Of a stretch of 64,000 nucleotides of DNA, positions 5,966 through 59,317 are shown one piece after another. Within the stretch, counting starts at the first letter, position 1; each line of letters opens with the position of its first letter. This DNA is from an uncultured Chloroflexia bacterium. Its GTDB lineage: Bacteria; Chloroflexota; Limnocylindria; Limnocylindrales; CSP1-4. Below the pieces are notes generated by a model. That model saw nothing but the letters and a program-made list of their open reading frames with translations. It made no database searches and was not told the origin of the DNA. The position numbers and the translations under genes are program-made. Where the stretch lies: NCBI GenBank assembly GCA_963794525.1, contig CAWCEC010000003.1, positions 124,003 to 188,002 on the forward strand, given 5' to 3'.

Positions 5966-5970
5966 GCGGG

Positions 5971-7308: not shown

Positions 7309-7436
7309 CGACTAACGATACGCGCCACTCCCGGCCATGGATCCCGCGGGCGACATCCCGCTGGCGACGGCGGGCGCGCAGGCTTACCGTATCCTCGGGA
7401 CCCCAGCCTGTTGCGACATGGAGGCAAGTCCGTCCG

Positions 7437-9404
7437 ATGACGGTCGAGACAGTCGAGCTCGGTCGCGACGCGATCGATCGACGCGCCTGGGAGGAAGCGG
7501 TCGAGGCCTTCGACGCCGCCGACCGTGATGGTGCGCTGGCACCGGCAGACCTCGAGCTGCTGGGCGCCGCCCGGTGGTGGTCAGGACACCCCGCGGAGGC
7601 TGCCGACGCGCTCGAGCGTGCGTTCACGGGGTTCGTCGAGACCGGCGCGGTCAAGGAGGCCGCCTGGGTCGCGCTCCAGCTCGCGTATCAGGCATTCCGA
7701 CGTCGGCTGAGCTCCATCGGCGGCGGGTGGCTGATGCGCGCCGAACATCTCCTCGAGGGTCAGCCCGAGTCGAACATCCACGCCCGGGCCATGGTGTTCC
7801 AGGCCATCGGAGCGTTGATGGCGAGCCGCCTCACGGAAGGGACCGAGCTCGCCGATCGTGCGATGGAGCTGGCTCGGAAACACGATGACCTGAACTCGAT
7901 GTACATGGCGATGAGCCTCAAGGGCTTGGGGAACGTGTTCGGCGGCGACTGGCAAGCCGGCCTCGCCCTCATCGATGAGGCCGCAACGGCCGCATCATCC
8001 GGTCAACTCGACCTACGCGTAGCGAGTGACATCTACTGCAACACGATCGCCGCGTGCCGGGACATCGGGGACTACAAGCGGGCCGGGCAGTGGGCAGAGG
8101 AAGGCGAGCGCTGGATGCGCCGCCAGTCGATCGGCGGCTACCCGGGCATCTGTCGGGTCCATCGCGCGGAGCTCAAGATGCTGCGCGGCCTGTGGCCCGA
8201 GGCGGAGCAGGAGGCACGCCAGGCGTGCGAGGAACTCGAGCGTTTCGGGCTTCTCGATTCCATGGGTTGGGCGCACTACCAGGTCGGCGAGGTCCGCTTG
8301 CGGATGGGCGACCTCGATGGTGCAGCAGAGGCGTTCGACCGGGCATACGAGTACGGGCACGATGCCCAGCCCGGCTTGGCGCTGCTGCAACTGGCTCGTG
8401 GCGAGGTCGACGAAGCTGCCCGCTCCATCGCGCGGGCGATCGCCGTGACGAAGGGGGCCGACCGGAACATCGATCGGGCCACCCGCGCCCGCCTGTTGCC
8501 CGCCCAGATCGACATCGCGCTCGCCGCAGGCGATCTCGAAACGGCCGGTCCGGCCGTCGATGAGCTCGAGTCGATCGCGACCGACTTCCAGCGACCGGTC
8601 TTCGAGGCGGGCGCGCTGACGGCGCGGGGCGAACTCCTCCTCCGCGAGGACCGGCCGGCCGAGGCATCCCCGATCCTGGGGCGATCCTGGCGGCTCTGGC
8701 AGGAGTCCGACCTCCCGTACGAGAGCGCGCTGGCCCGCCTCCACTACGCCGAGGCGCTGGCGGCCGACGGTGACGAGACGGCTTCTCGGCGCGATCTTCG
8801 TGCGGCTCGAAGCGCGTTCGAGCGCCTGGGCGCGACGCGGGACCTGCAGCGGGTCGATGCCATGCTCGGCGAGGACGCGGCCATGGCTGCCCCGTCATCG
8901 CGGCGCGTGACCAAGACGTTCATGTTCACCGACATCGTCACCTCGACCGACCTGGTCGGCCTCATCGGCGACGACGCCTGGGAGGAGCTGCTGCGCTGGC
9001 ACGACCGGGAGCTGCGATCGGCGTTCGCGCACCATCGTGGCGAGGAGGTCAATTCGACGGGCGACGGCTTCTTCGTCGCCTTCGAGCGGGCGGCCGACGC
9101 CATCGACTGCGCGGTCGACATCCAGCGCCGGCTCACGCGCCACCGTCGTGAGCACGGCTTCGCCCCGTTGGTCCGCATCGGGATCCACACCACCGAGGCG
9201 GCACACCAGGGCAGGGACTACCGGGGTAAGGGTGTGCACGTCGCTGCTCGCGTCAGTGCTGCCGCGGCCGCGGAGGAGATCCTTGTCTCGAGCGCCGCGC
9301 TGAGCGGGACAGGGCCGATCCGGTTCAGCCTGTCCGAGCCGCGTCAGCTGACGCTCAAGGGCGTCGAGGAGCCCGTGGAGGCGCGCAGCGTCGACTGGCG
9401 CTAG
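7437..9404 (+). CDS. TPR-repeat protein with a C-terminal class III adenylate/guanylate cyclase domain
   Basis: Start at MTVETVELG; the upstream part of the ORF overlaps the convergent lipoprotein gene. Cyclase motifs FMFTDIVTSTDL and NSTGDGFFVAFE are present, with TPR-like helical repeats N-terminal to them. Confidence 0.8.
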   Translation: MTVETVELGRDAIDRRAWEEAVEAFDAADRDGALAPADLELLGAARWWSGHPAEAADALERAFTGFVETGAVKEAAWVALQLAYQAFRRRLSSIGGGWLMRAEHLLEGQPESNIHARAMVFQAIGALMASRLTEGTELADRAMELARKHDDLNSMYMAMSLKGLGNVFGGDWQAGLALIDEAATAASSGQLDLRVASDIYCNTIAACRDIGDYKRAGQWAEEGERWMRRQSIGGYPGICRVHRAELKMLRGLWPEAEQEARQACEELERFGLLDSMGWAHYQVGEVRLRMGDLDGAAEAFDRAYEYGHDAQPGLALLQLARGEVDEAARSIARAIAVTKGADRNIDRATRARLLPAQIDIALAAGDLETAGPAVDELESIATDFQRPVFEAGALTARGELLLREDRPAEASPILGRSWRLWQESDLPYESALARLHYAEALAADGDETASRRDLRAARSAFERLGATRDLQRVDAMLGEDAAMAAPSSRRVTKTFMFTDIVTSTDLVGLIGDDAWEELLRWHDRELRSAFAHHRGEEVNSTGDGFFVAFERAADAIDCAVDIQRRLTRHRREHGFAPLVRIGIHTTEAAHQGRDYRGKGVHVAARVSAAAAAEEILVSSAALSGTGPIRFSLSEPRQLTLKGVEEPVEARSVDWR

Positions 9405-16884: not shown

Positions 16885-17892
16885 GTGCCTTCCGTGGCCA
16901 CACAGCGCTTCGAGTCATCCGTCACCGCGGTGTCGTGGATCCCGTCAGAGGCGATCAGCGGCCCATCCAAGATCCCGTTCGAGTTCGGTGTGACCCACTA
17001 CGACGATCCCCCGCCGGATCGGCTCGAGGACATCGAGCAGCTGCGGACGAGTGACCGCTTCCGCGAAGCGAACGAGCTGCGCGGGTTCATCGAGGTCGAG
17101 GACGGCAAGATCGTGCGTGCCGGCCACCTCGGGCAGGGCCACATCGGCGCCACCACCGTCCGGGTCGGGCCGGCCGCCCTGCGCTTCCCCGCGGTCCAGC
17201 TGCCGGACATCCAGGCCGAGCCGGAGATCGGCCCCTCGTCCGCCCGCTTCGTCCAGACGGTCGGCGGCCGCATGGGCCTTCCCACGCCGCGACCCGTGCC
17301 GCACAAGCCATTCGTCCAGTTCTGGCCATCGATCGCCTGGACGACGCTCGCGCTGACGATCAACGCCGACGGCAGCTCGAGCCATGAGCTCCTGGGCGCG
17401 AGCGCGTTCCCGCGCCATTGGATCTACGACGACGAGGGAACGCTGACCGAGAAGTCCGGGGTGATCGACTTCGGGAAGTGGTTCAACGACTCGTTCGGCG
17501 AGCGGACGCCGTGGGGCGACCAGGACTCACCGACGGTCGTGGCCGCGGTCGAGTCGGCGCTCGAGCGGTCGCTGTCGAGCGCGATCATGAGCGGCGGCAC
17601 CAAGCCGAAGATCCAGACCATCCCGGAGGGCACCAACCTCGTCCGCCAGGGTCAGGGCGGCACGGAGGTCTACCTGATCCTCGACGGGATCTTCGTGGTC
17701 GAGGTCGACGATCGTGAGGTCGCCGAGATCGGTCCGGGTGCTGTGGTCGGCGAGCGAGCCGCGCTCGTGAACGGCACGCGAACGGCCACGTTATGGGCCC
17801 GCACGCCTGGCCGCGTCGCCAGCGTTCCCTATGACGCGCTCGATTCGCAGGCGCTCGGGAGCCTCGCGGCGGCGCATCAGCGCGAAAGGTAA
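16885..17892 (+). CDS. protein with a C-terminal cyclic-nucleotide-binding domain; N-terminal domain unknown
   Basis: GTG start. cNMP region EVYLILDGIFVVEVDDREVAEIGPGAVVGERAALVNGTRTATLWA. Confidence 0.7.
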   Translation: MPSVATQRFESSVTAVSWIPSEAISGPSKIPFEFGVTHYDDPPPDRLEDIEQLRTSDRFREANELRGFIEVEDGKIVRAGHLGQGHIGATTVRVGPAALRFPAVQLPDIQAEPEIGPSSARFVQTVGGRMGLPTPRPVPHKPFVQFWPSIAWTTLALTINADGSSSHELLGASAFPRHWIYDDEGTLTEKSGVIDFGKWFNDSFGERTPWGDQDSPTVVAAVESALERSLSSAIMSGGTKPKIQTIPEGTNLVRQGQGGTEVYLILDGIFVVEVDDREVAEIGPGAVVGERAALVNGTRTATLWARTPGRVASVPYDALDSQALGSLAAAHQRER

Positions 17893-17933: not shown

Positions 17934-19844
17934 ATGGATCGTGATCCGCTGGCACTGTCCGCCGAGTCCATGCGCGAGATGGGCTACGCGGTCGTGGACA
18001 TGCTCATCGCGCGGATCGAGGCGCTTCGGAGCGGACCGGTCCTTCGGACCGAAACCCTCGAGCGGATGCTGGAGCGCCTCGACGGACCGCCATCGGCCGG
18101 GCCGCGCGACTTCACGGAGCTCCTTCGTGGTCTCGATGAGGACGTCCTGCCATTCGTCGGCCACTTCGACCATCCGCAATTCTTCGGCTACATCCCGGGC
18201 GCCGGCACGTGGCCCGCGGCGCTCGGAGACCTGATCGCGGCAGCCACCAATATCGATGCCGGCGCCTGGCGGGAAGGCGTCGGGCCGACCACGCTGGAGC
18301 TCATCGTCCTCGACTGGTTCCGTGACTGGATCGGCTACCCCGAGTCGGCGTCTGGAGTCCTCGTGTCCGGCGGGTCGGCCGCGAACCTCACGGCGATCGC
18401 GTGTGCCAGAGAGGCGCTCATCGGTCCGATGTCACCGCGCATCGTCATGTACACCGGCGACCAGACCCACTCGTCGGTCGCTCGCGCCGCGCGCCACCTC
18501 GGCTTCCGGCCCGATCAGCTCCGCGTTCTGCCGAGCGACGAGTCATTCCGCCTGCGTCCAGGGGACGTCGCCGCGGCGATCGACGCCGACATCGCCGCGG
18601 ATCGGCTGCCGTTCCTCGTCAGCGCGAACGCCGGCACGACGAACACCGGTGCGGTCGACCCGATCGGCGACCTTGCCAAGGTGTGCCACGACCGTGGTGT
18701 CTGGCTCCATGTCGATGGGGCGTACGGCGCATTCGCGGTCCTGACGGAACGCGGTCGGCAAGCGATGCCCGACCTCGCTGCCGCGGATTCCGTGACCCTC
18801 GATCCGCATAAGTGGCTCGCGATGCCGTTCGAGGTCGGCTGTCTGCTCGTGCGGGATGGGGCGATGCTCGAGGGGGCATTCGAGTTGCACCCCGAGTACC
18901 TCAAGGACCGCGACGAGCACGCGGGCGTCAATTTCGCGGATCGAGGGCTGCAGCTGACACGGGCCAGCCGCTCGATCAAGGTCTGGCTGGCCATCGAAAC
19001 GTTCGGACTTGATGCCTTCCGGGCGGCCATCGACCGCGCGATCGATCAAACACTCGCGGCCCAGGCCCGGATCGAGGCCGACCCGCGGCTCGAGCTCATG
19101 ACCTCGGCCTCACTCGGGATCCTCACGTTCCGCCGTCGAGGCACGCCCAGCGAGCCCACCATCGTCACGGACCGCCGCAATGAAGCCATCGTCAAGTCGA
19201 TCGCTGCGAGCGGCAAGGTCCTGCTCACGTCGACGATGGTCCAGGGGCGCTATGCGATCCGCATGTGCGTGCTCAACCACACGACGGAGGATGAGGACGT
19301 CGTCTTCGCACTCGACCGTGTCGCCGAGGCGGACGTGTCGGACCTCGAGGTCGCGGCATCGCAGCCGACGGGGCGACAGGTCGCCGGGACGACCGTGGAG
19401 GCGGCTGCGGCGGCACCCTCAGGATCGCGCGGGGCTGACCTCAGGCGTGTGCGCGGGTTCGAATCGCTCACCGACGAGCAGGCGACGCGCTTTCTCGCGG
19501 TCGCACGAGAGGAAACGCGTCGGAGAGGCGAGACCATCACCGAGCGCTGGGCACATGCCCGCACGTTCTACATCGTGCTCGACGGCGAGGTGTCGATCAC
19601 GATCGATGGCGTCGAGGTGAACCGTCTGGCCGGCGGCGAGTCCTTCGGTGAGATCGCCGCGATCGATTGGGGCCGTGATTTCAGCTACGGCCGGACGGCG
19701 ACGGTGACCACGACGATGCCGACGCGGCTCCTGGCCGTGCCGGGCGCGGCGCTGCGCGAGCTGATGCTCGACGCACCACGGGTCGATGCCTCGATCCGCC
19801 AGATCGCCTTCGAACGCATGCGTCGCGTAGGGACCACCGTCTGA
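17934..19844 (+). CDS. group II PLP-dependent amino-acid decarboxylase (aromatic-L-amino-acid / glutamate decarboxylase family) fused to a C-terminal cNMP-binding domain
   Basis: PLP-lysine motif SVTLDPHKWL and conserved VSGGSAANLTA. C-terminal cNMP region FYIVLDGEVSITIDG...GESFGEIAAI...RTATV. Confidence 0.85.
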   Translation: MDRDPLALSAESMREMGYAVVDMLIARIEALRSGPVLRTETLERMLERLDGPPSAGPRDFTELLRGLDEDVLPFVGHFDHPQFFGYIPGAGTWPAALGDLIAAATNIDAGAWREGVGPTTLELIVLDWFRDWIGYPESASGVLVSGGSAANLTAIACAREALIGPMSPRIVMYTGDQTHSSVARAARHLGFRPDQLRVLPSDESFRLRPGDVAAAIDADIAADRLPFLVSANAGTTNTGAVDPIGDLAKVCHDRGVWLHVDGAYGAFAVLTERGRQAMPDLAAADSVTLDPHKWLAMPFEVGCLLVRDGAMLEGAFELHPEYLKDRDEHAGVNFADRGLQLTRASRSIKVWLAIETFGLDAFRAAIDRAIDQTLAAQARIEADPRLELMTSASLGILTFRRRGTPSEPTIVTDRRNEAIVKSIAASGKVLLTSTMVQGRYAIRMCVLNHTTEDEDVVFALDRVAEADVSDLEVAASQPTGRQVAGTTVEAAAAAPSGSRGADLRRVRGFESLTDEQATRFLAVAREETRRRGETITERWAHARTFYIVLDGEVSITIDGVEVNRLAGGESFGEIAAIDWGRDFSYGRTATVTTTMPTRLLAVPGAALRELMLDAPRVDASIRQIAFERMRRVGTTV

Positions 19845-19921
19845 GACTGTCTGGGCGGGCGCGTCACGAGCCTCGTCATCCGTCGCCGACGGACCACCGC
19901 TCGACGGACTAGGCTGCCGTC

Positions 19922-21328
19922 ATGACGTCCTCGCAAGCCGTTTCGCCAACAGCCGCCCAGCTCGAAACGTTTCGTCGGTCCTTCGCGGGCGAGGTGATCA
20001 CGCCCGATGCCGCCGGCTACGACGATGCCAGGCGGGTCTGGAACGCGATGTTCGATCGTCGACCGGCCATGGTCGTCCGACCCTCGAGTGTCGCCGACGT
20101 CGTCGCGGCCGTTCGCTTCGGCCGCGAGCTCGATCTCGAGATCGCGGTCCGCGGTGGTGGTCACAGCGCCGTCGGGCACTCGACGACCAACGGCGGCCTG
20201 GTCATCGACCTCGGGCGGATGAACGAGGTCACCGTCGACCCGGCGCAGCGACTCGCTCGCACGGGCGGTGGGGCGCTCCTCGGCAAGCTCGACATCGCGG
20301 CCCAGGAGCACGGGCTCGTCTGCCCGGTCGGAGTCGTCGGCCACACGGGTGTGGCCGGCTTGACGCTCGGTGGCGGCGTCGGGCGGCTCCAGCGGCGGTT
20401 CGGGCTGACGATCGATAGCCTTCGCTCGGTCGAGCTCGTGACCGCCGACGGGCGCCTGGTGCGGGCGAGCGCGGACGAGGAGCCGGAGCTGTTCTGGGGC
20501 CTCCGCGGCGCCGGCGCGAACTTCGGCGTCACGACGAGCCTGGAGCTCGAGCTGCACCCCTTTCCGGGAACGCTCCACCGAGGCGTCCACGTCCACCCGG
20601 CGACTGACATCCAGGAGCTCTGGCCGATCTTCCGCGAGTTCATGGCGACGGCCCCCGAAACCATCGCGGCGATCTTCACCGTCGCCCTCGCAGAGCCGGC
20701 GGCGAACTACCCCAATTCGGTCGCCGGTCGGCCGATCGTCGTCATCTCCTACAACCACAGCGGGGCAGGGGAGGACGCGGAGCGCGACGTCGCGCCATTG
20801 CTAAAGGGCCCGGCACCAGCCTCGAAGACCGCCACCAGCGAGGAGTACCTGGTCGCCCAGCGTTCGAGCGACCTCGACCTGGCATGGGGCTCCCGGACCG
20901 CCATCCTCGGTGGCTACGTCGCGGATTGTTCGCCGGCCGTGCTGGATGCGTTCGTCGGGCACGTGGAGCACGTGCCGGGCGACAGCAGCATCTCGGTAAC
21001 GGCGATGGGCGGCGCGATCGCTCGCGTGGCGGACGACGCGATGGCATTCACCGGCCGTCCCCACCCCTTCGACGTCAGCCCCGACACGGCCTGGTCCGAT
21101 CCGGCCCTCGACGAGGCGAACATGGAATGGGCACGGCGGGCGATGGCGATCATCGAGCCAGACATGCTTCCCGGCCGCTACATCAACGAGTTGTCCGATG
21201 CGGGTCCCGAGATCACGCGATCCAGCTACGGCGACGCCAAGCTGGAGCGATTACAGACGCTCAAGCGAGCCTGGGACCCGACCAACGTCTTCCACCTGAA
21301 CCACAACGTCGAGCCCGCCGGCGGCTGA
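19922..21328 (+). CDS. FAD-binding oxidoreductase (FAD_binding_4 / berberine-bridge-enzyme-like)
   Basis: RPSSVADVVAAVRFGRE, GGGHS and a C-terminal BBE-like tail LKRAWDPTNVFHLNHNV. Confidence 0.85.
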   Translation: MTSSQAVSPTAAQLETFRRSFAGEVITPDAAGYDDARRVWNAMFDRRPAMVVRPSSVADVVAAVRFGRELDLEIAVRGGGHSAVGHSTTNGGLVIDLGRMNEVTVDPAQRLARTGGGALLGKLDIAAQEHGLVCPVGVVGHTGVAGLTLGGGVGRLQRRFGLTIDSLRSVELVTADGRLVRASADEEPELFWGLRGAGANFGVTTSLELELHPFPGTLHRGVHVHPATDIQELWPIFREFMATAPETIAAIFTVALAEPAANYPNSVAGRPIVVISYNHSGAGEDAERDVAPLLKGPAPASKTATSEEYLVAQRSSDLDLAWGSRTAILGGYVADCSPAVLDAFVGHVEHVPGDSSISVTAMGGAIARVADDAMAFTGRPHPFDVSPDTAWSDPALDEANMEWARRAMAIIEPDMLPGRYINELSDAGPEITRSSYGDAKLERLQTLKRAWDPTNVFHLNHNVEPAGG

Positions 21329-21330
21329 CA

Positions 21331-21350
21331 CGGTGGGTTGATACTGCCGG
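21331..21350 (+). promoter_or_regulatory. 20-nt motif CGGTGGGTTGATACTGCCGG immediately 5' of the amine-oxidase ATG; copy 1 of a shared motif
   Basis: Near-identical to 27055-27075, CGGTGGGGTCGATACTGCCGG, which is 5' of the acyl-CoA synthetase ATG. The core GATACTGCCGG recurs, inverted, in the palindrome at 26375-26393. Confidence 0.4.
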
Positions 21351-21351
21351 C

Positions 21352-22798
21352 ATGACGATGCCGGCCGACCCTGAGCACCACGCGGAGCTCGATGTTGCGA
21401 TCGTGGGAGCGGGCGCGGCCGGAACGTACCTCGGCTATCGGCTGATCCGGGCCCGTCCGGACTGGCGGATCGCGATCTTCGAGCGGTCGACCCGGATCGG
21501 CGGCCGCCTCTGGAGTGTGAAGGTCGACGGGCTCGCGCACCCGATCGAGCTCGGGGGCATGCGCTACATGTCCGGGCATCCGCTGATCCAGTCGATCGTC
21601 GACGAGTTGGGGATCGAAACACGCGCCTTCGATACCGCCGAGCAACCCGAACGGACCTTCCTGCGTGGCGTGGTGGGTGACAGCCCGGACGATCCTGATG
21701 GCGGGCGTGGCTATGACCTGGCGGCCAAGGAGGCGGGACGGTCGGCGTCCGATCTCATGCGGGCTGCCTTCCTCAGGATCGTGCCGCAGGCCGGCGAGCT
21801 CGACGAGCCGGCCTGGCGTCGACATCGCGCGACGGCGACATTCGGCGGGCGGCCGCTCACGGACTGGTCGATCGAGGAGGCCGTCGCGACGATCCTCAGC
21901 CCGCAGGCCCATCGCTTCGCCACCGACGCGTTCGGCTACGACTCTGGCATCCGCCCCCATAACGCTGGCGACGCGATCCAGTACGTCATGGGCACCGGCT
22001 ATCCGTCGGGTGAGGCGCGCGTTCCCGTCGACGGCATGGACTGGATCCCGCGTGAGCTCGTCAAACAGTTCATGGCGCTCGGGGGGATCGTCGAGCTCGG
22101 CCACGACCTGCTTCGGGTCGATCCAGAGGAGAGGAGCGTCCTTCTCGGCTTCGCCGACGGCTCAGGCGTCCGGGCGCGAAGGCTTGTCCTCACGCTCCCG
22201 ATCCCCGCCCTCGAGGCACTGGCCGATGGCTCGCCACTCATCAACGGTCCGACATGGCGACGGCTGTACAGGTCGATCGCGGGCTACCCGGCGACGAAGC
22301 TGTACTGCTGGTACGACCGGCCCTGGTGGCGCGACGGCAAAGACGCCCCCACCGGCCTCCGGACGACGACAGACTTGCCGCCCCGCAAGATCTTCTACTT
22401 CGACGAGGGGCCCGATCGACCCGCCGCGATGCTCGCCGCCTTCACCGACTTTCGGCACAACGAGCCGATCGTCGCCCTGGCCGAGAGCCCGGGTGGCGGA
22501 GCACCGGCTCCAGGGCCGCTCCTGGAGGCGCTCCGGGGCTGGCTGCGCCCATCCGGGCGCGGAGGTCCCCACTCTGCCCCTCGGCTCCGCGTTCCAACAC
22601 TGGGGCGCCGACCCGCGGGAGGTCGCATGGCACTTCTGGCGGCAGGGCAGCAACTCCGACGAGATGATCGACCTCGCCGCGCAGCCAGACCCATCCCTGC
22701 CGATCCACCTGTGCGGCGAAGTGTTCTCGCGCCGCGGCGCTTGGGTGGAGGGCGCCCTCGAGACGGCGAAGGCTGTCGCCGACCGCGTCGTGGGCTGA
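21352..22798 (+). pseudogene. flavin-containing amine oxidase (NAD(P)/FAD-binding), single frameshift near 22535-22545
   Basis: Dinucleotide-binding fold DVAIVGAGAAGTY. The C-terminal tail GEVFSRRGAWVEGALETAKAVADRV lies in frame 2. Removing one C from a CCC run restores LRGWLRHPGAEVP. Confidence 0.7.
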
Positions 22799-23243
22799 GG
22801 TCTGCCTCGAGCCCAACGTCTTTGCGGCTTCGCGGCGAATGCCGGACTTCGGGCCGAAATTGCGGCTCGTCATGACGAACTGCGATCGCCCCGAGAACAT
22901 CGGGCCTGCTCATCGGAATCGGCCATCTTGAGGGCGCCGTACCCGAGGCCAGGGGCAGTCCTCGCCCCCCTCATGCGTCCGATCGACATCCTTTCTGGGC
23001 AGGGCTTATGTCGTCCGACCAACGCGACCGGCGGAGATTGAACCGAATCACTTCCCGCGACGCCTAGTCGATGAGGGGTCCACACCATGGACCAGCGTGT
23101 GCCGCGCCTGTTGCCGGCGCGGACGCTGAAGGGAGGGACGCGGATTGACCGATCTCGATCAGCCGTCGAGGGGCTGATCCGGGCTCTCGACACGCACGGG
23201 CGCTCGGTGATGACAACGAAGCACTGGTTCGAGGAAATACGTC

Positions 23244-24554
23244 ATGACGCACTATCGGCAGCGCTCGAGGGGCAGGCGCTGGCTTTCGATGCCCATGGCG
23301 ATCGCGCTGATCGCCATCTCACTGCTGATCCCGGCCACATCCGTCTCGGCCCGCGAGCCGACCGACATGGTCCTCGAGTGGAACATCAATGCGATCAACG
23401 CGATCGGCAACCCCGCGGACGCGACTCCGCCCGGCCTCGGTCAGCCACCCCCGCTTGCGCCGATCCACCTCGCGATGGTCCACGGCGCGATCTACGACGC
23501 CGTGATGGCGATCGTCGACACCCACGAGGAGTATCTGGACGGTCTCAACGCACGGAGGTCGTCCTCCCAGCCGGCCGCCGTCGCGGCTGCGGCGCACGGA
23601 GTGCTCGTTGGCCTCACGTCTGGGTCGCCGACGGTCAAGGCCAGCGTCGACAGCCTCTATGCCGCGTCCCTTGCGAAGATTCGCAACGGAACGGCCAAGC
23701 AGCGGGGGATCACCGTCGGCAAGGCCGCAGCGGCGGCGATGCTCGCCAACCGCGTTGGTGACGGCCGCTTTGGAACGTACGCGTTCGCAGTTGGCACGCA
23801 GCCGGGCGAATGGCGCCCCGTGCCGCCGGCCAACGCAAACACCTTCGGATGGATCAGCCTCGTCAAGCCGTTCACGCTGCGCCGAGCGGACCAATACCGG
23901 ATCGGGGCGCCATATCCCCTCACCAGTGCCGCCTACGCCAGGGAATTCAATGAGGTCAAGAGGCTCGGTGGGGCGACCTCTGTCCGGACACCCGAGCAGG
24001 CCCGGATCGCCAGCTGGGCGTCGGTCAATCCCTTCAGCATGGTCAACCGGGGGCTCCGGGACATCGCCACCAAGCGGCACCTCTCGACGAGCCAGCAGGC
24101 ACGACTGTTCGTGATGACGAGCATGTCGACGGCTGACTCCCTGATCGCCTGTTGGGAAAACAAGGATCACTGGCACTTCTGGCGACCGCAGACCGCGATC
24201 CAACTAGCAGATACAGACGGGAACCCGGCCACCGTGGCCGATCCCACCTGGACGTCGCTGATCGGAAACCCGGGCTACCCGGACCCGCCTTCAGGCTTCA
24301 ACTGCCTGGTGTCCGGGGCGATGAACGCCGCTCGCGCGTACTTCCGGACGGACAGGATGAAGTTCAGTCTCACAAGCGTAGGGGCCGCGCCCGTCACACG
24401 GAACTACACCCGATTCAGTGGCCCCATCAAGGACGCGATCGAGGGTCGCATCCTCGTCGGCATCCATTTCCGACGAGCTGATGTCCAGGGAGCCTGGCTC
24501 GGCGGGAAGGTCGCAAGATACCTCTCGACACATTACTTCGAGCGAGAAGACTGA
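23244..24554 (+). CDS. secreted PAP2-superfamily / vanadium-dependent haloperoxidase-like protein
   Basis: Signal peptide with an RR motif. Family resemblance in WHFWRPQTAI and RILVGIHFRRAD. Confidence 0.6.
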   Translation: MTHYRQRSRGRRWLSMPMAIALIAISLLIPATSVSAREPTDMVLEWNINAINAIGNPADATPPGLGQPPPLAPIHLAMVHGAIYDAVMAIVDTHEEYLDGLNARRSSSQPAAVAAAAHGVLVGLTSGSPTVKASVDSLYAASLAKIRNGTAKQRGITVGKAAAAAMLANRVGDGRFGTYAFAVGTQPGEWRPVPPANANTFGWISLVKPFTLRRADQYRIGAPYPLTSAAYAREFNEVKRLGGATSVRTPEQARIASWASVNPFSMVNRGLRDIATKRHLSTSQQARLFVMTSMSTADSLIACWENKDHWHFWRPQTAIQLADTDGNPATVADPTWTSLIGNPGYPDPPSGFNCLVSGAMNAARAYFRTDRMKFSLTSVGAAPVTRNYTRFSGPIKDAIEGRILVGIHFRRADVQGAWLGGKVARYLSTHYFERED

Positions 24555-24623
24555 CCACCCACCCAACAAACACACGACCCCCGGCCCGTTGGAGTGGGTC
24601 GGGGGTCGCATCCTGTCTGGCCT

Positions 24624-26168
24624 CTACTCCGAGGCGTACTCCCGAAGCTTGCGACTGCGGGACGGGTGTCGGAGCTTGCGCAGTGCGTGCGACTCGATCT
24701 GCCGGATCCGCTCACGCGTCAGGCCGAACTCCTGGCCGACCTCCTCGAGCGTCCGTGGACGCCCGTCGTCGAGGCCGAACCGCAGCCGGAGGACATGTTC
24801 CTCGCGGCCGTCGAGGCTGTCGAGCACGTGGTCGAGCTGCTCCTTGAGCAGCTGGTTCGTGGCAGCCTCCACCGGCGAAATGGCCGTCTCGTCCTCGATC
24901 AGGGCACCGAGCTCGGTATCGCCGTCCTCGCCGATCGGCGTCTCGAGCGAGATCGGCGTCCGACCGTAGCGCTTGACCTCTTCGACGCGTTCGGGCGTGA
25001 TGGTCCAGCGCGGATCCTCGGACAGGGTCGCGGCGATCTCAGCGGCCGTGGGCTCGCGCCCGAGCTGGACCGTCAGCTCGCGCGTCGTCCGGGTCACGCG
25101 CTGCATCGTCTCGACCATATGGACCGGGACGCGGATCGTCCGCGACTGGTCGGCGACGCCGCGCTGGATCGCCTGGCGGATCCACCACGTCGCGTACGTC
25201 GAGAACTTGAAGCCGCGCTGCCACTCGAACTTGTCGACGGCACGCATCAGCCCGGCGTTGCCCTCCTGGATCAGGTCCAGGAAGCCGAGGCCGCGGTTCA
25301 TGTACTTCTTGGCATTGGCGACGACGAGTCGCAGGTTGGCCGAGATCATGTGATCCCGGGCGACCTTCGCCTGGTCGATGAGGGTGCCGCTCGCCTCGCC
25401 ATCTGTCTCGGGTCGGTATCCCAGGGTCCCGAGACCGTCGGCGTCGTGACCAACCTCGACCCAGCGACGGAGCGCGGGGATGGCGACCTCGTCGCGCGCC
25501 CAAGCGAGCATCGCGCTGAGACTCTTCTCGTCCCGGAATGCCGGGCGCCGGCCGACCGCGTGCGCCCAATCGAGCAGCGCGAGGAACGCATCGACGTCGA
25601 GTCGCTCGTTGTAGACCGCCCGAAGCGCACGGCCGCGCTCCAGGAGCTCGGCCGAAGGGCCGCCCTGAGCTGAGCGGATCGCCTCGGTGAAGCCGAAGCG
25701 GGGTGCTGTGGTGAGCAGATCGCCCGCCGACTCGTCCGCGAGCGCGGTACGCACGATCCGATGAGCCTCTGCGCCGAACGGCAGGGCGTACAGCGGATGC
25801 TTGGCGCGCGCGGTCACTTCCGTGTCGTGGAGCGTCCACTCATGAAGGTCGAGGATGGCCGTCCAGGGCTCGGTCCGGATCCGGACACCGAGCTCGATGG
25901 CCTTGGCCAAGACGACTTCTTCTTCAGCCGTCAGCAGCGGCACGCGCGCGATCTCGCGGAGGTAGAGGCGCGTCGAGTCCTCGACGTCGAGGGCAGCATC
26001 GTCCGCGATCGCCTCGCCGTCGCGCTCGAGGTCGGGCTTGCTCTGACGTGCGGTCGGGATGTCTACGACGACCGTCTCGCGCTCGATCCGCTCGAGCTCG
26101 GCAGCGGCGACGACCGTATCCGCGGGCTCGGTGTCAGTCAGTTGGGCGTTGTCAGGGATCTGGATCAA
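24624..26168 (-). CDS. RNA polymerase sigma factor, RpoD/sigma-70 family, with a long non-conserved insertion between regions 1.2 and 2
   Basis: Region 1.2 ([17 protein letters not shown]), region 2 ([57 protein letters not shown]) and region 4 ([29 protein letters not shown]). Confidence 0.85.
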
Positions 26169-26301
26169 GGGTTCTCCGCGTGCAGACGATCACGCGTGGC
26201 GACGCGTCATCGCCCGATGATGGATTTCGGGCCGGGCCGATCCCATCCGCCATCGGGTTCGGCTCTCGTGCCGGCTCCGCCAAGTGCCGGACACAGTTGC
26301 T

Positions 26302-26324
26302 GGCGTGTCAAGTCTTGACACGCC
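26302..26324. promoter_or_regulatory. perfect 11-1-11 inverted repeat GGCGTGTCAAG-T-CTTGACACGCC in the divergent region between the sigma-factor gene and the PPOX/acs operon; candidate operator
   Basis: Read directly. A 1-nt spacer rules out an RNA hairpin, which points to a dimeric DNA-binding protein site. Confidence 0.45.
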
Positions 26325-26351
26325 CGCGTAGACAACATCCTAGCAGAAACC

Positions 26352-26393
26352 GGTTGCTTTGGCAACCTCAATTCGATACTCCCCGGCAGTATC
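26352..26393. promoter_or_regulatory. two further palindromes: GGTTGC-TTTG-GCAACC (26352-26367) and GATACTCCCCGGCAGTATC (26375-26393); the second contains the GATACTGCCGG motif
   Basis: Read directly; they lie 40-80 bp upstream of the PPOX start codon. Confidence 0.4.
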
Positions 26394-26435
26394 TCCTGTG
26401 ACATCGTTGGGCCACACCCTCGAAGGAGGAAGGCG

Positions 26436-26993
26436 ATGTCGCAGGAACGAACACCGGAACGCGAGCAGTCGATGCTGGGCGACAAGTCCGGTACGACGGC
26501 CTGGGAGATGGCGCGGAAACGTCTTGCCGATCCCGAGCACCAGCGGACCAGCTGGCTCGCGACGACGCACCCCGACGGTAGACCGCACCTCATGCCGGTG
26601 ATCACGACGTGGATCGATGGTGCGCTCCACCTCGTCGTAGGGGAGGGGACGCGAAAAGGGCGGAATCTCGCCGCCGATGATCGATGCGTCATCGCCATGA
26701 GCAGCACCACACTCCCATCCCTCGACATCGTCATCGAGGGCCGCGCCGAGCCCGTGACTGAGGACGAAGCCGTTCGAAAGATCGCCGAGGACCTCTCCAA
26801 GAGCGGTTGGCCACTCGAGGCGAAAGGGAGCAAGGTCGACGGTCCCAACGCACCGACCGCCGGCCCACCGCCGTACACGATCTTCCGGATCGTGCCGTCG
26901 AAGGCATTCGGACTCCCCGGCATGTACGGGATGGACCAGTTCGAGCAGTCAGAACTGCCGAAACCGACCCGCTGGGAGTTCGATAACGGCTGA
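26436..26993 (+). CDS. pyridoxamine 5'-phosphate oxidase (PPOX) family protein, split-barrel, possibly F420/FMN-dependent
   Basis: Strong RBS GAAGGAGGAAGG. Motif WLATTHPDGRPHLMPV. Confidence 0.7.
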   Translation: MSQERTPEREQSMLGDKSGTTAWEMARKRLADPEHQRTSWLATTHPDGRPHLMPVITTWIDGALHLVVGEGTRKGRNLAADDRCVIAMSSTTLPSLDIVIEGRAEPVTEDEAVRKIAEDLSKSGWPLEAKGSKVDGPNAPTAGPPPYTIFRIVPSKAFGLPGMYGMDQFEQSELPKPTRWEFDNG

Positions 26994-27054
26994 CTACGGG
27001 AGCTCGGGTCGTCCGACCGAAGCGCCGGTACGCGCGTGGCTGGACGCTGACCCG

Positions 27055-27075
27055 CGGTGGGGTCGATACTGCCGG
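27055..27075 (+). promoter_or_regulatory. copy 2 of the CGGTGGG-N-T-N-GATACTGCCGG motif, 4 nt before the acyl-CoA synthetase start
   Basis: See copy 1. Confidence 0.4.
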
Positions 27076-27079
27076 TCCG

Positions 27080-28999
27080 ATGACGGAACGCCCGGACGAT
27101 GACGCTCGCCGGCGCTACGACGAGCTCTACCGCCGGTCCCTGGACGACGGCGAAGCGTTCTGGCTCGAGGCCGCGCGCCGCCTCGACTGGACGACACCGC
27201 CACAGCGCGCCCTCGAACTGCGCGAACCGCCGACCTTCGCCTGGTACCCGGGCGGACGGACGAACCTTTCGACCAATGCGCTGGACCGACATGTCGATGC
27301 TGGACATGGCGATGCCACGGCACTCATCGCGCTCGACGAACGCGGCGGCCGCCGGTCGCTGACCTACCGCGAGTTGCTCGCGGAGGTCGAGCGGGTTGCC
27401 GCCGGCCTACGTGGTCTCGGCATAGGAAAGGGTGACCGCCTCACGATCTACATGCCCACGTCCGCCGAAGCGATCATCGCGATGCTTGCCACGGTCCGCA
27501 TCGGGGCGATCCACTGCGTGGTCTTCGCGGGCTTCGGGGCGGGAGCGCTCGGCGACCGGATCCGGGCCAGTGGATCACGACTCGTCCTCGCGACGGACGT
27601 CACGTATCGGAAAGGCAAGGCTGTCGACCTGCTCGCGATCGTTGACGATGCGCTCGCGGCCGATCGGGGTGACGTCGAGCACGTCGTCGTCATGCGCCGT
27701 GACACCGCCTCACGCCGACCGCGTGAGGGAGAGTTGTCGTGGGAGGAGTTGCTAGGCGCCGGCGTCGGACGGGATGGCCGCGTCGAGGACACCGCCGCCG
27801 AGGATCCGGCGTTCATCCTCGCGACGTCCGGCACGACCGCGAAGCCCAAGCTCGCGGTCCATACGCACGGCGGCTACGGCGTGCACATCGCCTCGATGGG
27901 TGATTGGGTGTTCGGGCTGCGCGATGGCGAGAGGTGGTGGTCGACCTCTGATATCGGGTGGGTCGTGGGCCACAGCTACATCGTCTACGCGCCTCTCATG
28001 GCCGGCGCCGCCACCATCGCTTGGGAAGGCGCATTGGACCATCCGGACGCCGACAACCCGTGGTCGATCATCGAGCGCGAGCGCGTCACGGGCGTCTTCT
28101 CCTCGCCGACTGGTATCCGACTCCTCATGCGCTACGGGGAGGACGTCCCGCGCCGCCACGACCTCGACACCCTCGAGCGCATGTTCTCGGCCGGTGAGGT
28201 GCTCAACGCGCCGGCCTGGGAGTGGCTGCAGCGGACCGTGTTCCAGGATCGCGTTCCCGTGATCGACCACATGTGGCAGACAGAGACCGGCGGGCCGATC
28301 TTCGGCAACCCGTACGGGGTCGGTCTGCTGCCGATCAAACCGGGCTCCGCCGGGCTGGCGTTGCCGGGGGTCGAGGCGGATATCGTCGACAGTGACGGAC
28401 GGCCGGTCGGGGCAGGCGAGAAGGGGATCATGCGGATCGTCCGTCCGTTTCCTGGCCTGATCACGACCCTCTGGGGGGAACCTGAGCGCTACGTCGCCGA
28501 TTACTGGGACCGCATCCCGGGCGGCTACTACGTCGGCGACGCGGCCCACATCGACGAGGATGGCTACGTCTGGTTCGCCGGCCGAGCCGACGAGATCATC
28601 AAGATCGCGGATCATCGGATCGGCACGATCGAGGTCGAGACCGCGTTCATGCGCCACCCGGCGGTCGCCGAGGCGGGCGTCACCGGTGTCCCGAACGAGC
28701 TCCGCGGGCAAGTCATCGAAGCGTTCGTGGCGCTCCGCGCCGGTCACGAGCCATCCGAGGCCCTGCGCGAGGAGCTCATCCAGACCGTGCGTCACGAGCT
28801 CGGGCCGCTCGCCGTGATCGAGCACGTGTCGTTCGTGGCGATCCTGCCGAAGACCCGCAGCGGGAAGATCATGCGCCGCGTGCTGAAGGCCGTCGCGGTC
28901 GACCGCGACCCGGGCGATATCAGCACGATCGAAGACGAGGGCTCGGTCGACGAGGCGCGGCGTGCCGTCGAGGAGCTTCGCTCCGGCCTCGTGTCGTGA
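27080..28999 (+). CDS. AMP-forming acyl-CoA synthetase, acetyl-CoA synthetase-like (Acs family)
   Basis: AMP-binding motif TSGTTAKPK and a C-terminal SGKIMRRVLKAV. Confidence 0.85.
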   Translation: MTERPDDDARRRYDELYRRSLDDGEAFWLEAARRLDWTTPPQRALELREPPTFAWYPGGRTNLSTNALDRHVDAGHGDATALIALDERGGRRSLTYRELLAEVERVAAGLRGLGIGKGDRLTIYMPTSAEAIIAMLATVRIGAIHCVVFAGFGAGALGDRIRASGSRLVLATDVTYRKGKAVDLLAIVDDALAADRGDVEHVVVMRRDTASRRPREGELSWEELLGAGVGRDGRVEDTAAEDPAFILATSGTTAKPKLAVHTHGGYGVHIASMGDWVFGLRDGERWWSTSDIGWVVGHSYIVYAPLMAGAATIAWEGALDHPDADNPWSIIERERVTGVFSSPTGIRLLMRYGEDVPRRHDLDTLERMFSAGEVLNAPAWEWLQRTVFQDRVPVIDHMWQTETGGPIFGNPYGVGLLPIKPGSAGLALPGVEADIVDSDGRPVGAGEKGIMRIVRPFPGLITTLWGEPERYVADYWDRIPGGYYVGDAAHIDEDGYVWFAGRADEIIKIADHRIGTIEVETAFMRHPAVAEAGVTGVPNELRGQVIEAFVALRAGHEPSEALREELIQTVRHELGPLAVIEHVSFVAILPKTRSGKIMRRVLKAVAVDRDPGDISTIEDEGSVDEARRAVEELRSGLVS

Positions 29000-29673
29000 C
29001 TGCCGCTGGGCCCGTCGACGCCGTCTTCTTCGACCTGTTCGGGACGCTGCTGTCTCTGGCGCCTCTCGATGACGCCTGCGAACGCCTGGCGCCCGGCCGA
29101 GGCGCGGAGATCGCCGCTCGATGGCGCGCGCGGCAGCTCGAGGCATCGTGGCTGCGCACGGCGATGGATCGGTGGGCCGACTTCGACACCGTCACCCACG
29201 AGGCCCTGGTAACGACGCTCGACGAGCTGGGGATCGCGACGCCCGATGACCAGGACGGGCTGGCCGACGCCTTCGCGGCGCTTCCGCTCATTCCGGACGC
29301 TGCCGACGTCGTCGGACGACTGCACGCCGCCGGGCTGACCACCGGCATCCTGACAAACGCCTCGGCGCGCAGCCTCGACCGCATCTGTGCGCGCCTTGAC
29401 CTGCCGATCGACCATCGCCTGTCGGTCGACCCGGCGCGACGGTTCAAGCCTCACCCCAGCGTCTACCGCCTCGCCGTCGACGCGACCGGGCTCGCGCCGG
29501 AACGCATCGGGTTCGTCACGGCGAACGGTTGGGACGCGGCGGGCGCGGGTGCGTTCGGGTTGCGCGTCGCCTGGCTCCGTGCTGACGGTGCCGCACGACT
29601 GCCTGCAGTCGGCGCGCCCGAACCCGTCATCACGACCTGGCCCGGGATCGCGAGCGTGTTCGTCGCTACTTGA
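28996..29673 (+). CDS. HAD-family hydrolase (haloacid dehalogenase-like)
   Basis: Motif I AVFFDLFGTLLSL; overlaps the synthetase gene by 4 bp. Confidence 0.75.
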   Translation: MTAAGPVDAVFFDLFGTLLSLAPLDDACERLAPGRGAEIAARWRARQLEASWLRTAMDRWADFDTVTHEALVTTLDELGIATPDDQDGLADAFAALPLIPDAADVVGRLHAAGLTTGILTNASARSLDRICARLDLPIDHRLSVDPARRFKPHPSVYRLAVDATGLAPERIGFVTANGWDAAGAGAFGLRVAWLRADGAARLPAVGAPEPVITTWPGIASVFVAT

Positions 29674-29700
29674 CGACGCGGGCCCGCCATAATCCTGGTC

Positions 29701-29931
29701 GTGAGACTCCGACCCAATCCGCCACGCATGGTCACGGTGGTCGTCGCCGTCGCGCTGGCTGTCGTCGGCGCCATCCTGGCGTGGCCGATCGACTCGGTCA
29801 TCGGCGTCCTCGCGCCACTCGACAGCTTCCTGTCGGTGGCCGGGCTGGGGCTCGATCGCGAGACGGGCTTCCTATTCCTGTTGCTGTCCCCGGCGCTCCT
29901 GGTCGTCGGCTCACTCCTGCCGCAGATCTGA
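29701..29931 (+). CDS. small membrane protein
   Basis: 76-aa ORF with two transmembrane segments. Confidence 0.4.
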   Translation: MRLRPNPPRMVTVVVAVALAVVGAILAWPIDSVIGVLAPLDSFLSVAGLGLDRETGFLFLLLSPALLVVGSLLPQI

Positions 29932-29944
29932 CCGGGGAGGTGAA

Positions 29945-30118
29945 ATGCGCCGGATGAATTTCGCCCCGACCGCGCGGACGATCATCGTCGCCCTCCTCCT
30001 CATCGTCGTCGGGCTGCTTGGCACATACGGGACGGTGGTGCCCGACGCCGCCGGCATCATCGCGTTCCTTGCCGCGACCGTGCTCCTCTTGTTCGGGATG
30101 GTCGTCCGGTGGTTCTGA
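29945..30118 (+). CDS. small membrane protein (57 aa), missing from the ORF track
   Basis: ATG at 29945 preceded by GGAGGTG. Translates MRRMNFAPTARTIIVALLLIVVGLLGTYGTVVPDAAGIIAFLAATVLLLFGMVVRWF with no stops. Confidence 0.4.
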   Translation: MRRMNFAPTARTIIVALLLIVVGLLGTYGTVVPDAAGIIAFLAATVLLLFGMVVRWF

Positions 30119-30135: not shown

Positions 30136-31344
30136 TCAGGCTGACGCGGGCGCGACCTGCTTCAGGCGTCGCGAAACCGCCACGGTCGTCGCTGCAGCAA
30201 GCGCCATGACCACGACCCCGTAGCCAAGTGCCGTCGACCGCAACCCAAAGACCGACACGAGGGCCCCGGCGATGATCGTCGGCATGCTGAACGAGACGAA
30301 TACCACCACGTAGATGGCCGCGACGAGCGCACCGCGCTGCTCGGGGAGGGCCAGCGGGGACGTCGCTCGTACGAACGCCGAGAAGCCTCCGCCAAGGCCG
30401 ACACCCGCTACGACGCTGCCGCCATAGAGGAGTGCCGGATTCCCCAAGAGCACACCGAGCAGCGTCACAGCGACGCCGAGGATCACGATGGCAGAGCCTG
30501 AAACCAACAACCGATTCGCATCGACACGACGCAACAAGAACGAGGCGGCCGCACCCGTACCGCAGAGGGCGAAGATGATCAGTCCGCCAACGAGGCGGTC
30601 GGTCGTTCCCAGCGTCTCCATCGCAAGCGACGGGCCGAGTGCCAGGTACAGGCCGCCGAGCGCCCACATCCCGACGATCGCGGGCGTGGCCGCGACGAAG
30701 GCCGGCCGGACGGTGGCCGGCACCCCGATGCTCGGGCGCATCGAGGCCTGCCACCCGGGTCTGCGGCGGTCGCCTCCCGGAACGGTGACCAAGGTGACGA
30801 TCGCGATCAGATAGATGACCGCAAGGACCTGATAGACGAGGGACAACGGATCCGGTCCGTACTCCGCGAGGACAGCCGCGAACAAGGCTCCGCCGCCGAG
30901 ACCGAGCAAGGGCCCGGCGCCATTGACCACACTTCCGACTTGCGGGTCCGCTGGCGGCGACAGATCGAGCAGCCACGCGCTGACGGCGCCGGCGGCGAGC
31001 CCTATTCCCGCCCCGGTGAGGATGCGTGCCGCGAACAACAGCAGGACGTCGGTGGCCGCGATGAAGAGCAGCATCGCGAAGACCTCTGTCGCGAGCGCCG
31101 CAATGAGCACCGGCCGACGCCCGAGATGGTCGGAGAGTCGTCCTGTCGTGAGCAGCGTCGCGATGCCGCCCGCGGCATACGAGGCGTAGATGGCGGTCAG
31201 CGTCAGAGGCGAGAACCCCATCGTGACCTGGTACTCGCGGTACAGCGGCGATGGCGCGCTCGCGGCGAACAGCAGGAGCGCGAGAATGAGCGCGAGGAGC
31301 CAGAAGGCAGGGCCGCGTCCAAGAGAGAGAGCCCCTCGGTCCAT
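30136..31344 (-). CDS. MFS transporter
   Basis: 402 aa, 12 transmembrane segments, MFS motif GRLSDHLGRRPV. Confidence 0.85.
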   Translation of the reverse strand: MDRGALSLGRGPAFWLLALILALLLFAASAPSPLYREYQVTMGFSPLTLTAIYASYAAGGIATLLTTGRLSDHLGRRPVLIAALATEVFAMLLFIAATDVLLLFAARILTGAGIGLAAGAVSAWLLDLSPPADPQVGSVVNGAGPLLGLGGGALFAAVLAEYGPDPLSLVYQVLAVIYLIAIVTLVTVPGGDRRRPGWQASMRPSIGVPATVRPAFVAATPAIVGMWALGGLYLALGPSLAMETLGTTDRLVGGLIIFALCGTGAAASFLLRRVDANRLLVSGSAIVILGVAVTLLGVLLGNPALLYGGSVVAGVGLGGGFSAFVRATSPLALPEQRGALVAAIYVVVFVSFSMPTIIAGALVSVFGLRSTALGYGVVVMALAAATTVAVSRRLKQVAPASA

Positions 31345-59297: not shown

Positions 59298-59317
59298 GGC
59301 CGCATACTGCACGGCCC

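Follow-up and report, generated by a model that had tools for sequence, protein, structure and literature searches.

Predicted leaderless gene starts and an operator-like palindrome around a sigma-factor/PPOX gene pair in an uncultured Chloroflexota bacterium

Bacterial leaderless genes, those of Chloroflexi included, have a published signature, a TANNNT hexamer some 12 bp before the start codon, and promoters of such genes have been described for the high-GC Actinobacteria, Deinococcus-Thermus and Chloroflexi (PMC3160421). Type-1 operators of the CsoR/RcnR/FrmR repressors consist of short arms around a G/C tract: the site of Escherichia coli RcnR reads TACT-G6-N-AGTA and that of E. coli FrmR has ATAC/GTAT around a 9-bp G/C tract (PMC3902906, PMC5146963), while CsoR did not bind to a half-site in vitro (PMC3902906). 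Bidirectional promoters can furthermore arise because the −10 element is symmetrical (bioRxiv 10.1101/2020.01.31.928960; PMC12825309). Here we analyse a 64-kb stretch of contig CAWCEC010000003.1 from an uncultured Chloroflexia bacterium, hereafter the window, in which a motif of some 20 nt precedes the start codons of genes for a flavin amine oxidase (AO) and an acetate-CoA-ligase-like enzyme (ACS), and in which the core of this motif recurs, inverted, in a palindrome upstream of a gene for a PPOX-class flavoprotein. We assign a probability of roughly 70% to the reading that the shared core is the −10 promoter element of leaderless or near-leaderless genes and that the palindrome is a separate, plausible operator. 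The arrangement as such is already known and current concepts remain unchanged.

Start regions of the amine-oxidase and acetate-CoA-ligase genes

The 11-mer GATACTGCCGG is present in three copies in the window, two on the plus strand (21340-21350 and 27065-27075) and one on the minus strand (26393-26383). The first copy closes the 20-mer CGGTGGGTTGATACTGCCGG at 21331-21350, which ends 1 nt 5' of the AO start codon (ATG 21352), and the second closes the 21-mer CGGTGGGGTCGATACTGCCGG at 27055-27075, which ends 4 nt 5' of the ACS start codon (ATG 27080). The third copy is the minus strand of GATACTCCCCGGCAGTATC at 26375-26393. Upon re-reading of the sequence, the coordinates and sequences given for all three sites in the initial annotation proved correct, and the gene identities stand as well, i.e., a flavin amine oxidase for AO, an AMP-binding enzyme for ACS and a PNPOx/F420-type protein for PPOX. 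The shared 20-nt motif described there is a real likeness, but its extent was set too short. When the AO and ACS sites are aligned by hand (the MAFFT alignment misplaced them), the similarity runs further and reads GCTGAC-(2-4)-CGGTGGG(G)T(T/C)GATACTGCCGG-(1-4)-ATGACG.

Taken alone, the 11-mer is unremarkable, because at least three matches with at most one mismatch occurred in 13 of 100 shuffles. The longer similarity was evaluated by local alignment of the AO upstream 38-mer against both strands of the 64 kb. The ACS upstream region emerged as the top non-self match with a score of 34, the next best reaching 23 (mean 12.6, standard deviation 2.6 over 4262 windows), and the reciprocal scan with the ACS query agreed, so that the two upstream regions are mutual best matches. 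We consider it very unlikely that this extended likeness is a coincidence produced by a shared hexamer and G/C-rich flanks in a genome with 69% G+C. Such an explanation draws on the lack of significance of the core, on the flanks, which are not conserved in orthologues, and on the many exact 11-mer repeats to be expected in 64 kb of biased composition (our own, uncomputed estimate). It has to contend with reciprocal best matches in 128 kb (both strands) some 8 standard deviations above the mean, with the equivalent placement of the AO and ACS sites before start codons, and with the fact that ACS promoters of other genomes also resemble AO promoters.

A dispersed, REP- or MITE-like repeat is a scarcely credible source of the motif. 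Three copies of the 11-mer do lie within 6 kb, but the 64 kb hold no more of them, and related sequence totalling about 280 kb contained it at orthologous promoters, in one AO remnant and nowhere else. The 21-mer had no other match with up to three mismatches in the window and none in 100 shuffles, a general repeat search of 20.5-28 kb yielded nothing except weak chance pairs, and neither terminal repeats nor target duplications accompany the motif. The initial annotation had named an abundant repeat without positional bias as the case that would speak against a control element; instead, the 64 kb contain just three copies, each of them within a promoter region. The window has four ATACTGC heptamers, every one of which is near a start or within the palindrome, and the other five copies of ATACT apparently reside within coding open reading frames (ORFs) and are followed by different bases.

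Conservation among AO orthologues is confined to a short element. In the eight AO sequences that were compared (the window and the related loci L001, L004, L005, L006, L007 and L097, plus a remnant in L007), [G/C]ATACT-N6(7)-[A/G]TGACG is the sole conserved upstream feature, and the rest of the flanks cannot be aligned. The inspection of orthologous upstream regions suggested earlier thus bears out the hexamer and its distance from the start, while the flanks diverge. The upstream half of the motif, CGGTGGGTT, has the counterparts CCGTGGGTT, CGATGCGGT and CGGTGAGGT in close AO relatives and is unrelated in L001, L005 and L006; it is best regarded as promoter spacer DNA. The distant AO orthologues L008 and L009 are operonic or led by a Shine-Dalgarno sequence. 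Across the copies considered here the first base of the hexamer is G; L001 has C, some PPOX copies have A, and T is seen only at copA of L009 (TATACT) and at ACS of L010 (TAGGCT). In the protein encoded by AO, the FAD-binding GxGxxG motif starts at about residue 17.

For ACS, the pattern TGGAC(G/T)-N17/18-GATACT-N9-ATG is kept in four genomes (window, L090, L011 and L012), and the sequence beyond about −45 differs in every genome, as do the upstream neighbours. The half of the motif containing CGGTGGGG falls into the spacer between the ACS −35 and −10 hexamers and varies (CGGCGGGG, CGGCAGG, GTCGGA), so that CGGTGGG, previously included in the shared element, does not belong to a conserved site. 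In L010, whose ACS protein is 94% identical, TAGGCT replaces GATACT in the identical register; homology between this locus and the window ends inside the hexamer, and the TAG stop codon of the upstream gene completes TAGGCT. The 9-nt distance between box and ATG is preserved in five genomes and lies outside the usual 6-7 nt. As for the start codon itself, ATG 27080 is the first possible start of the ACS ORF, and it is backed by the distant orthologue L014, in which an ATG at the homologous codon is led by a Shine-Dalgarno sequence. ACS orthologues from other phyla possess a Shine-Dalgarno sequence and lack the box. In the closest relative, L090, a hydrolase gene on the opposite strand separates PPOX from ACS, and ACS must therefore have its own promoter there. 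The single PPOX-ACS operon assumed in the initial annotation is accordingly not required. The public ACS call in L090 (9354-11513, 719 residues) is about 80 codons too long when compared with the GATACT-N9-ATG start at 9594, which illustrates how start codons are miscalled in leaderless lineages.

The position of the box before the AO start agrees with a lineage-wide pattern. When the window was pooled with related loci (345 kb in total) and TANNNT-Nx-ATG/GTG was counted by spacing, 47 sites were found at N6, 38 at N7 and 21 at N8, as opposed to 5-13 for each spacing of 3-5 or 9-11 nt. Of the 47 N6 sites 24, and of the 38 N7 sites 11, open an ORF of 100 codons or more that has high G+C at third codon positions and an in-frame stop a short way upstream. 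Leaderless mRNAs thus appear to be common in this Chloroflexota lineage. The commonest leaderless hexamer is TAGGCT, and generic boxes have T as their first base and variable middle positions (TAGGCT, TATCGT, TAGTCT and others). An example within the window is the gene for a BBE/FAD oxidase, which precedes AO: its start (19910-19924) reads TAGGCT-GCCGTC-ATG, is alike in L004 and L007, and was the third-best match to the AO promoter query. Further ATACT boxes at a leaderless-type distance precede a gene for an ArsR-type helix-turn-helix protein (L008, N6) and copA (L009).

We propose that GATACT, with A at −11 and T at −7, would serve together with the G/C-rich discriminator as the −10 promoter element. 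At AO, RNA polymerase would start at the A of the ATG, and we infer from the register of the box that transcription begins at 21352 and that the mRNA is leaderless. At ACS, the −10 hexamer would be paired with TGGACG 18 nt upstream, giving a predicted leader of 0-3 nt. The earlier claim that the motif is an element controlling transcription and the start of translation is supported in this form, i.e., as a −10 box, by the orthologue register and the lineage-wide enrichment. It had also been stated correctly that there is no room for a Shine-Dalgarno sequence, since only GCCGGC (AO) and GCCGGTCCG (ACS) intervene between box and ATG; its absence can be explained by leaderless or near-leaderless mRNAs. 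PPOX, on the other hand, carries GAAGGAGGAAGGCG before its ATG. As in published leaderless-gene promoters (PMC3160421), the AO hexamer stands 6 nt before ATG or GTG without a Shine-Dalgarno sequence, and the −35 element is weak or absent. For genome annotation this means that AT-rich hexamers just 5' of starts in this lineage are to be read as promoters rather than as translational operators, and that they can help to fix start codons. Several other assignments were considered and discarded. GCTGAC or CTGACA as −35 element would be separated from GATACT by just 9-13 nt, with variable spacing. GGTGGG as Shine-Dalgarno sequence is 13 nt (AO) or 18 nt (ACS) away from the ATG and is not conserved. 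An extended −10 element composed of TGn and TACTGC would place C at −7 and the start within the codon.

A number of observations weigh against a generic −10 box. Unlike in published leaderless promoters, the first base is G or C, the G at −12 of AO being atypical; ATACT is fixed in every AO orthologue with the box and none of these has T at −12. The GANNNT class showed no enrichment at spacings of 6-7 in the 345 kb. The invariant TAC in the middle of the AO hexamers is tighter than TANNNT demands, which would allow for a specific factor. In several genomes, moreover, the promoters of AO and ACS stay alike (16 of 19 positions for L011 ACS versus the AO of the window), somewhat more so than expected from simple neutral decay. 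Finally, the 9-nt spacing at ACS and at the gene starting at 59318 exceeds the usual 6-7 nt and implies a leader of up to about 3 nt, with an uncertain exact transcription start.

These features would be accommodated if GATACT(G/C)CC(G)G defined a dedicated promoter subclass, a regulon in which AO, ACS and PPOX, and perhaps also the OYE-type oxidoreductase, copA and the ArsR-like gene, are read by a specific factor such as an alternative sigma factor (for example the adjacent rpoD-like protein) or a repressor binding to the palindrome. We regard this, the principal alternative, as unlikely, albeit worth weighing. It draws support from the contrast between the invariant ATACT of the eight AO orthologues and the variable generic boxes, from the confinement of ATACTGC to starts and the palindrome, from the half-site sequence that the AO box shares with one arm of the palindrome, as seen in the window (GATACTGCCGG) and again in L004 (GATACTCCGGG), and from the redox- or metal-related nature of the genes with the box. 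However, the box of L010 ACS is replaced by TAGGCT at an unchanged position, conservation among orthologues stops at the hexamer, AO and ACS lack a second palindrome arm and CsoR failed to bind a half-site in vitro, the independent examples number only about six in a heterogeneous gene set, and the sigma gene has a canonical promoter of its own. For the 20-mer as a specific site for a repressor or RNA-binding protein that co-regulates AO and ACS, as first suggested, we found no evidence; what is conserved is [G/C]ATACT and its distance from the start.

In principle the motif could function in RNA, forming a leader structure or a site for a protein on polycistronic read-through transcripts. An inverted repeat, GCCGGCAT-GACG-ATGCCGGC (stem GCCGGCAU-GACG-AUGCCGGC; 21346-21365), has the AO start codon at its centre. 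In the window the 8-bp stem spans the start codon (z = −2.5) and would bury the AUG in read-through RNA, L004 keeps the stem through changes on both sides, and it is also kept in L097 and the L007 remnant. We nevertheless judge such a function to be highly improbable. The fold z-scores for ACS, L004 and L007 were +0.4, −0.5 and −0.5 and thus no better than those of shuffles, the alignment fold contained four pairs that gained no net support from covariation, and L001, L005 and L006 lack the stem. A search of 19000-30000 gave no Rfam match up to E = 1, and a leaderless transcript would not include the left arm of the stem. The AO start-codon hairpin, restricted to close relatives, was consequently dismissed as a control structure, and the leader structure proposed in the initial annotation finds neither an RNA family nor a significant fold in its favour.

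Rearrangement around the sigma/PPOX pair

The genes next to AO differ between genomes. AO lies directly 3' of PPOX in L004, L007 and L097, where the junction reads ...GGCGGCTGACAC.GTG.G.TGATACT. In the window it is BBE that precedes AO, and here the BBE gene ends in GGCGGCTGA (Gly-Gly-stop, 21313-21328). This sequence is the 3' end of PPOX where AO follows PPOX, whereas BBE ends otherwise in L004, L007, L090 and L097. In L090 the VCPO-like gene comes immediately after BBE, AO being absent from this place, and in L091 the 3' flank of AO and the VCPO-like gene come after PPOX. Compared with L090, the AO cassette (~21320-23010) looks like an insertion that carried the GGCGGCTGA tail along, and the cassette would thus even have given its neighbouring gene a two-codon tail (GG-stop). 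L007 furthermore contains, at 4722-4815, a remnant of about 95 nt comprising the AO promoter and roughly the first 20-25 codons, beyond which the sequence is unrelated; this remnant is nearer to the AO start of the window than to the intact AO of L007 at 10001. From the relocations of AO and the L007 remnant it follows that the promoter plus the 5' end of the gene moves or duplicates as a unit. We view the region, with the divergent sigma/PPOX pair as its anchor, as a hot spot of rearrangement.

ACS promoters likewise begin after GCTGAC. The flanks shared by AO and ACS (GCTGAC..CGGTGGG..T and GCCGG) most likely reflect common descent, the simplest source being a duplicated junction, perhaps with later gene conversion, and two promoter segments would have descended from it amid repeated rearrangement around the sigma/PPOX pair. 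Such an origin accounts less well for the fair resemblance to AO promoters that ACS promoters retain in other genomes.

The palindromes between the sigma-factor and PPOX genes

The palindrome that contains the third, inverted copy of the core appears to be an element distinct from the AO/ACS motif, both of whose sites carry one palindrome arm only. It is the only TACT-N7-AGTA in the window (0.03 expected) and is found at the same place in all six genomes with the divergent sigma/PPOX arrangement. The arms are invariant among these genomes and the centres remain G/C-rich (CCCCGGC, CCGGGGC, CCTGGGT, CCCCGCC and CCTGGGC); CCCGGGG is also listed among the 7-bp tract variants of ATACT-N7-AGTAT. The palindrome is not present where PPOX sits in other contexts (L092-L096). 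Among 89 further loci (L001-L089) there is one additional copy, at 5860-5876 of L009 (TATACTCCCGGGGAGTATG), between ogt and the copper P-type ATPase gene copA (TIGR01511, 616 bits), whose ATG lies inside the right palindrome arm. The operator-like character attributed to the palindrome is thus supported by conservation in six genomes and by an independent copy at copA. In L009, the copper ATPase at 5875-8173 is spread over two frames, an ORF with an HMA domain (5875-6162) and the main ORF (5996-8173), a split that could stem from misassembly or mark a pseudogene or a frameshift site.

PPOX follows the palindrome at a distance of 43 nt, and the −35 element of the sigma gene has the palindrome about 10 bp upstream of it. 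The left arm of the palindrome constitutes the −10-like GATACT of the Shine-Dalgarno-led PPOX gene. It is best placed to be an operator over this PPOX box or an upstream site for the sigma promoter; the dyad would probably be bound by a dimeric or tetrameric repressor that occludes the −10-like box of PPOX. The hexamers of the sigma promoter are kept as TTGTCA / TAAGAT in relatives. Because the sigma gene has this canonical promoter (TTGCCA-17-TAGGAT), which is nearer to the gene, the GATACT on the minus strand of the palindrome is not needed as its −10 element and was discarded in that role.

With its 7-bp G/C tract between the arms, the palindrome matches the published pattern of type-1 CsoR/RcnR/FrmR operators, a resemblance rather than a demonstration of membership in that family. 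The form TACT-N7-AGTA, equivalent to ATAC-N9-GTAT, with fixed arms and a variable tract is shared with these operators, as is the overlap with a −10-like box; the independent copy in L009 overlaps the start of a copper-ATPase gene. Operators of this type typically lie over promoters of metal efflux or detoxification genes, and the cognate repressor of the DUF156 family is usually encoded close by. In contrast to them, the site is single and not tandem, it is flanked in the window by genes for a sigma factor and a PPOX-class flavoprotein and not by metal efflux genes, and the AO and ACS copies are only half-sites. With CsoR of Mycobacterium tuberculosis and with RcnR and FrmR of E. coli as queries, tblastn detected no gene of this family below E = 0.1 in the window and L001-L089; a regex search for such genes likewise returned nothing. 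The palindrome nevertheless constitutes a concrete candidate operator common to the promoter region of a sigma factor and a flavoprotein and to a copper-ATPase gene.

A wider speculation, to which we attach only a slender chance, is that ATACT plus a G/C tract is the recognition unit of one stress-responsive system in this uncultured Chloroflexota class. If so, the complete dyad of the sigma/PPOX and copA promoters would be recognised by a repressor resembling CsoR/RcnR/FrmR or by a sigma factor of its own, single units would be placed on the leaderless starts of AO, ACS, the OYE-type reductase and the ArsR-like regulator, and a mobile promoter cassette would travel with genes shuffled around the sigma gene.

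The DNA between the sigma and PPOX genes holds two other symmetrical elements. One of them, GGCGTGTCAAG-T-CTTGACACGCC at 26302-26324, is a perfect 11+1+11 palindrome and is nearly invariant in the window, L004, L007, L090, L091 and L097; it is located just 3' of the predicted sigma promoter and may be either an operator or a hairpin in the 5' leader of the sigma mRNA. The inverted repeat GGTTGC-TTTG-GCAACC (26352-26367) overlaps the −35 element of the sigma gene (TTGCCA, minus strand), reads GGTTGTC-TT-GACAACC in L004 and was also flagged as terminator-like on the minus strand.

Gene neighbourhood and further start sites

The features of the window treated here are compiled in Table 1. Its G+C content amounts to 66-72%. 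The genomic relatives of AO are all Chloroflexota, i.e., "Candidatus Limnocylindrales" or uncultured Chloroflexia metagenome-assembled genomes, which assigns the window to a high-GC, Limnocylindria-like lineage of this phylum and not to the actinobacteria. Look-ups of the exact AO and ACS proteins retrieved no record.

Table 1 Positions of genes and sequence elements in the window.
Feature	Position	Strand	Remarks
Cyclic-nucleotide-monophosphate (cNMP)-binding protein	16885-17892	+	
Pyridoxal-phosphate (PLP) decarboxylase with C-terminal cNMP-binding domain	17934-19844	+	
TAGGCT, predicted leaderless −10 box of BBE/FAD oxidase	19910-19915	+	6 nt before ATG 19922
BBE/FAD oxidase	19922-21328	+	stop TGA 21326-21328
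CGGTGGGTT, upstream half of motif	21331-21339	+	2-10 nt past BBE stop TGA 21326-21328
GATACT, candidate AO −10 hexamer	21340-21345	+	exactly 6 nt before ATG 21352; A at −11, T at −7
Discriminator GCCGGC, then ATG	21346-21354	+	matches the TANNNT-N6/7-start geometry of the lineage
Flavin amine oxidase (AO)	21352-22875	+	
Protein with weak VCPO-like match	23244-24554	+	
rpoD-like sigma factor	24624-26168	-	regions 1.2, 2, 3 and 4
Sigma-gene promoter TTGCCA-17 nt-TAGGAT	26365-26337	-	promoter scan; sigma-70-type; upstream TG
Palindrome G-ATACT-CCCCGGC-AGTAT-C	26375-26393	.	TACT-N7-AGTA with G/C centre; candidate repressor operator
PNPOx/F420-type PPOX protein	26436-26993	+	
TGGACG, −35-like hexamer of ACS	27041-27046	+	18 nt upstream of GATACT
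GATACT, candidate ACS −10 hexamer	27065-27070	+	9 nt before ATG 27080
GCCGGTCCG, discriminator/very short leader, then ATG	27071-27082	+	
Acetate-CoA-ligase-like AMP-binding enzyme (ACS)	27080-28999	+	
HAD hydrolase	28996-29673	+	
MFS transporter	30136-31344	-	
CATACT box	59303-59308	+	9 nt before ATG 59318, NADH:flavin oxidoreductase gene

The fusion of a PLP-dependent decarboxylase with a cyclic-nucleotide-binding domain is also called in L090; in the window it adjoins a second cNMP-binding protein.

The CATACT box belongs to a gene whose product matches the Pfam Oxidored_FMN profile from residue 6 onwards. Its ATACT core (59304-59308) is flanked by two opposed start codons (59295-59320): on the plus strand CATACT-N9-ATG leads into the flavin oxidoreductase, and on the minus strand CAGTAT-N6-ATG leads into a P-loop frame (GPTATGKT, MiaA-like). 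The latter frame ends after 28 codons and the long ORF goes on in another frame, which may point to a frameshift or an assembly error. The arrangement resembles bidirectional promoters built on −10 symmetry in that ATACTG reads NANNNT on both strands (xATACT, CAGTAT) and in that one ATACT core (59303-59309) lies between opposed starts 6 nt and 9 nt away. The boxes of the PPOX palindrome differ from such promoters, as they would face each other and not overlap back to back.

Two more leaderless-type starts, at 10411 (minus strand) of the window and at 1456 (minus strand) of L008, have TTGACATGCATGTCT and TTGACATGCATCTTT, respectively, directly 5' of the −10 box, and the palindromic GACATGCATGTC at these starts looks like another operator.

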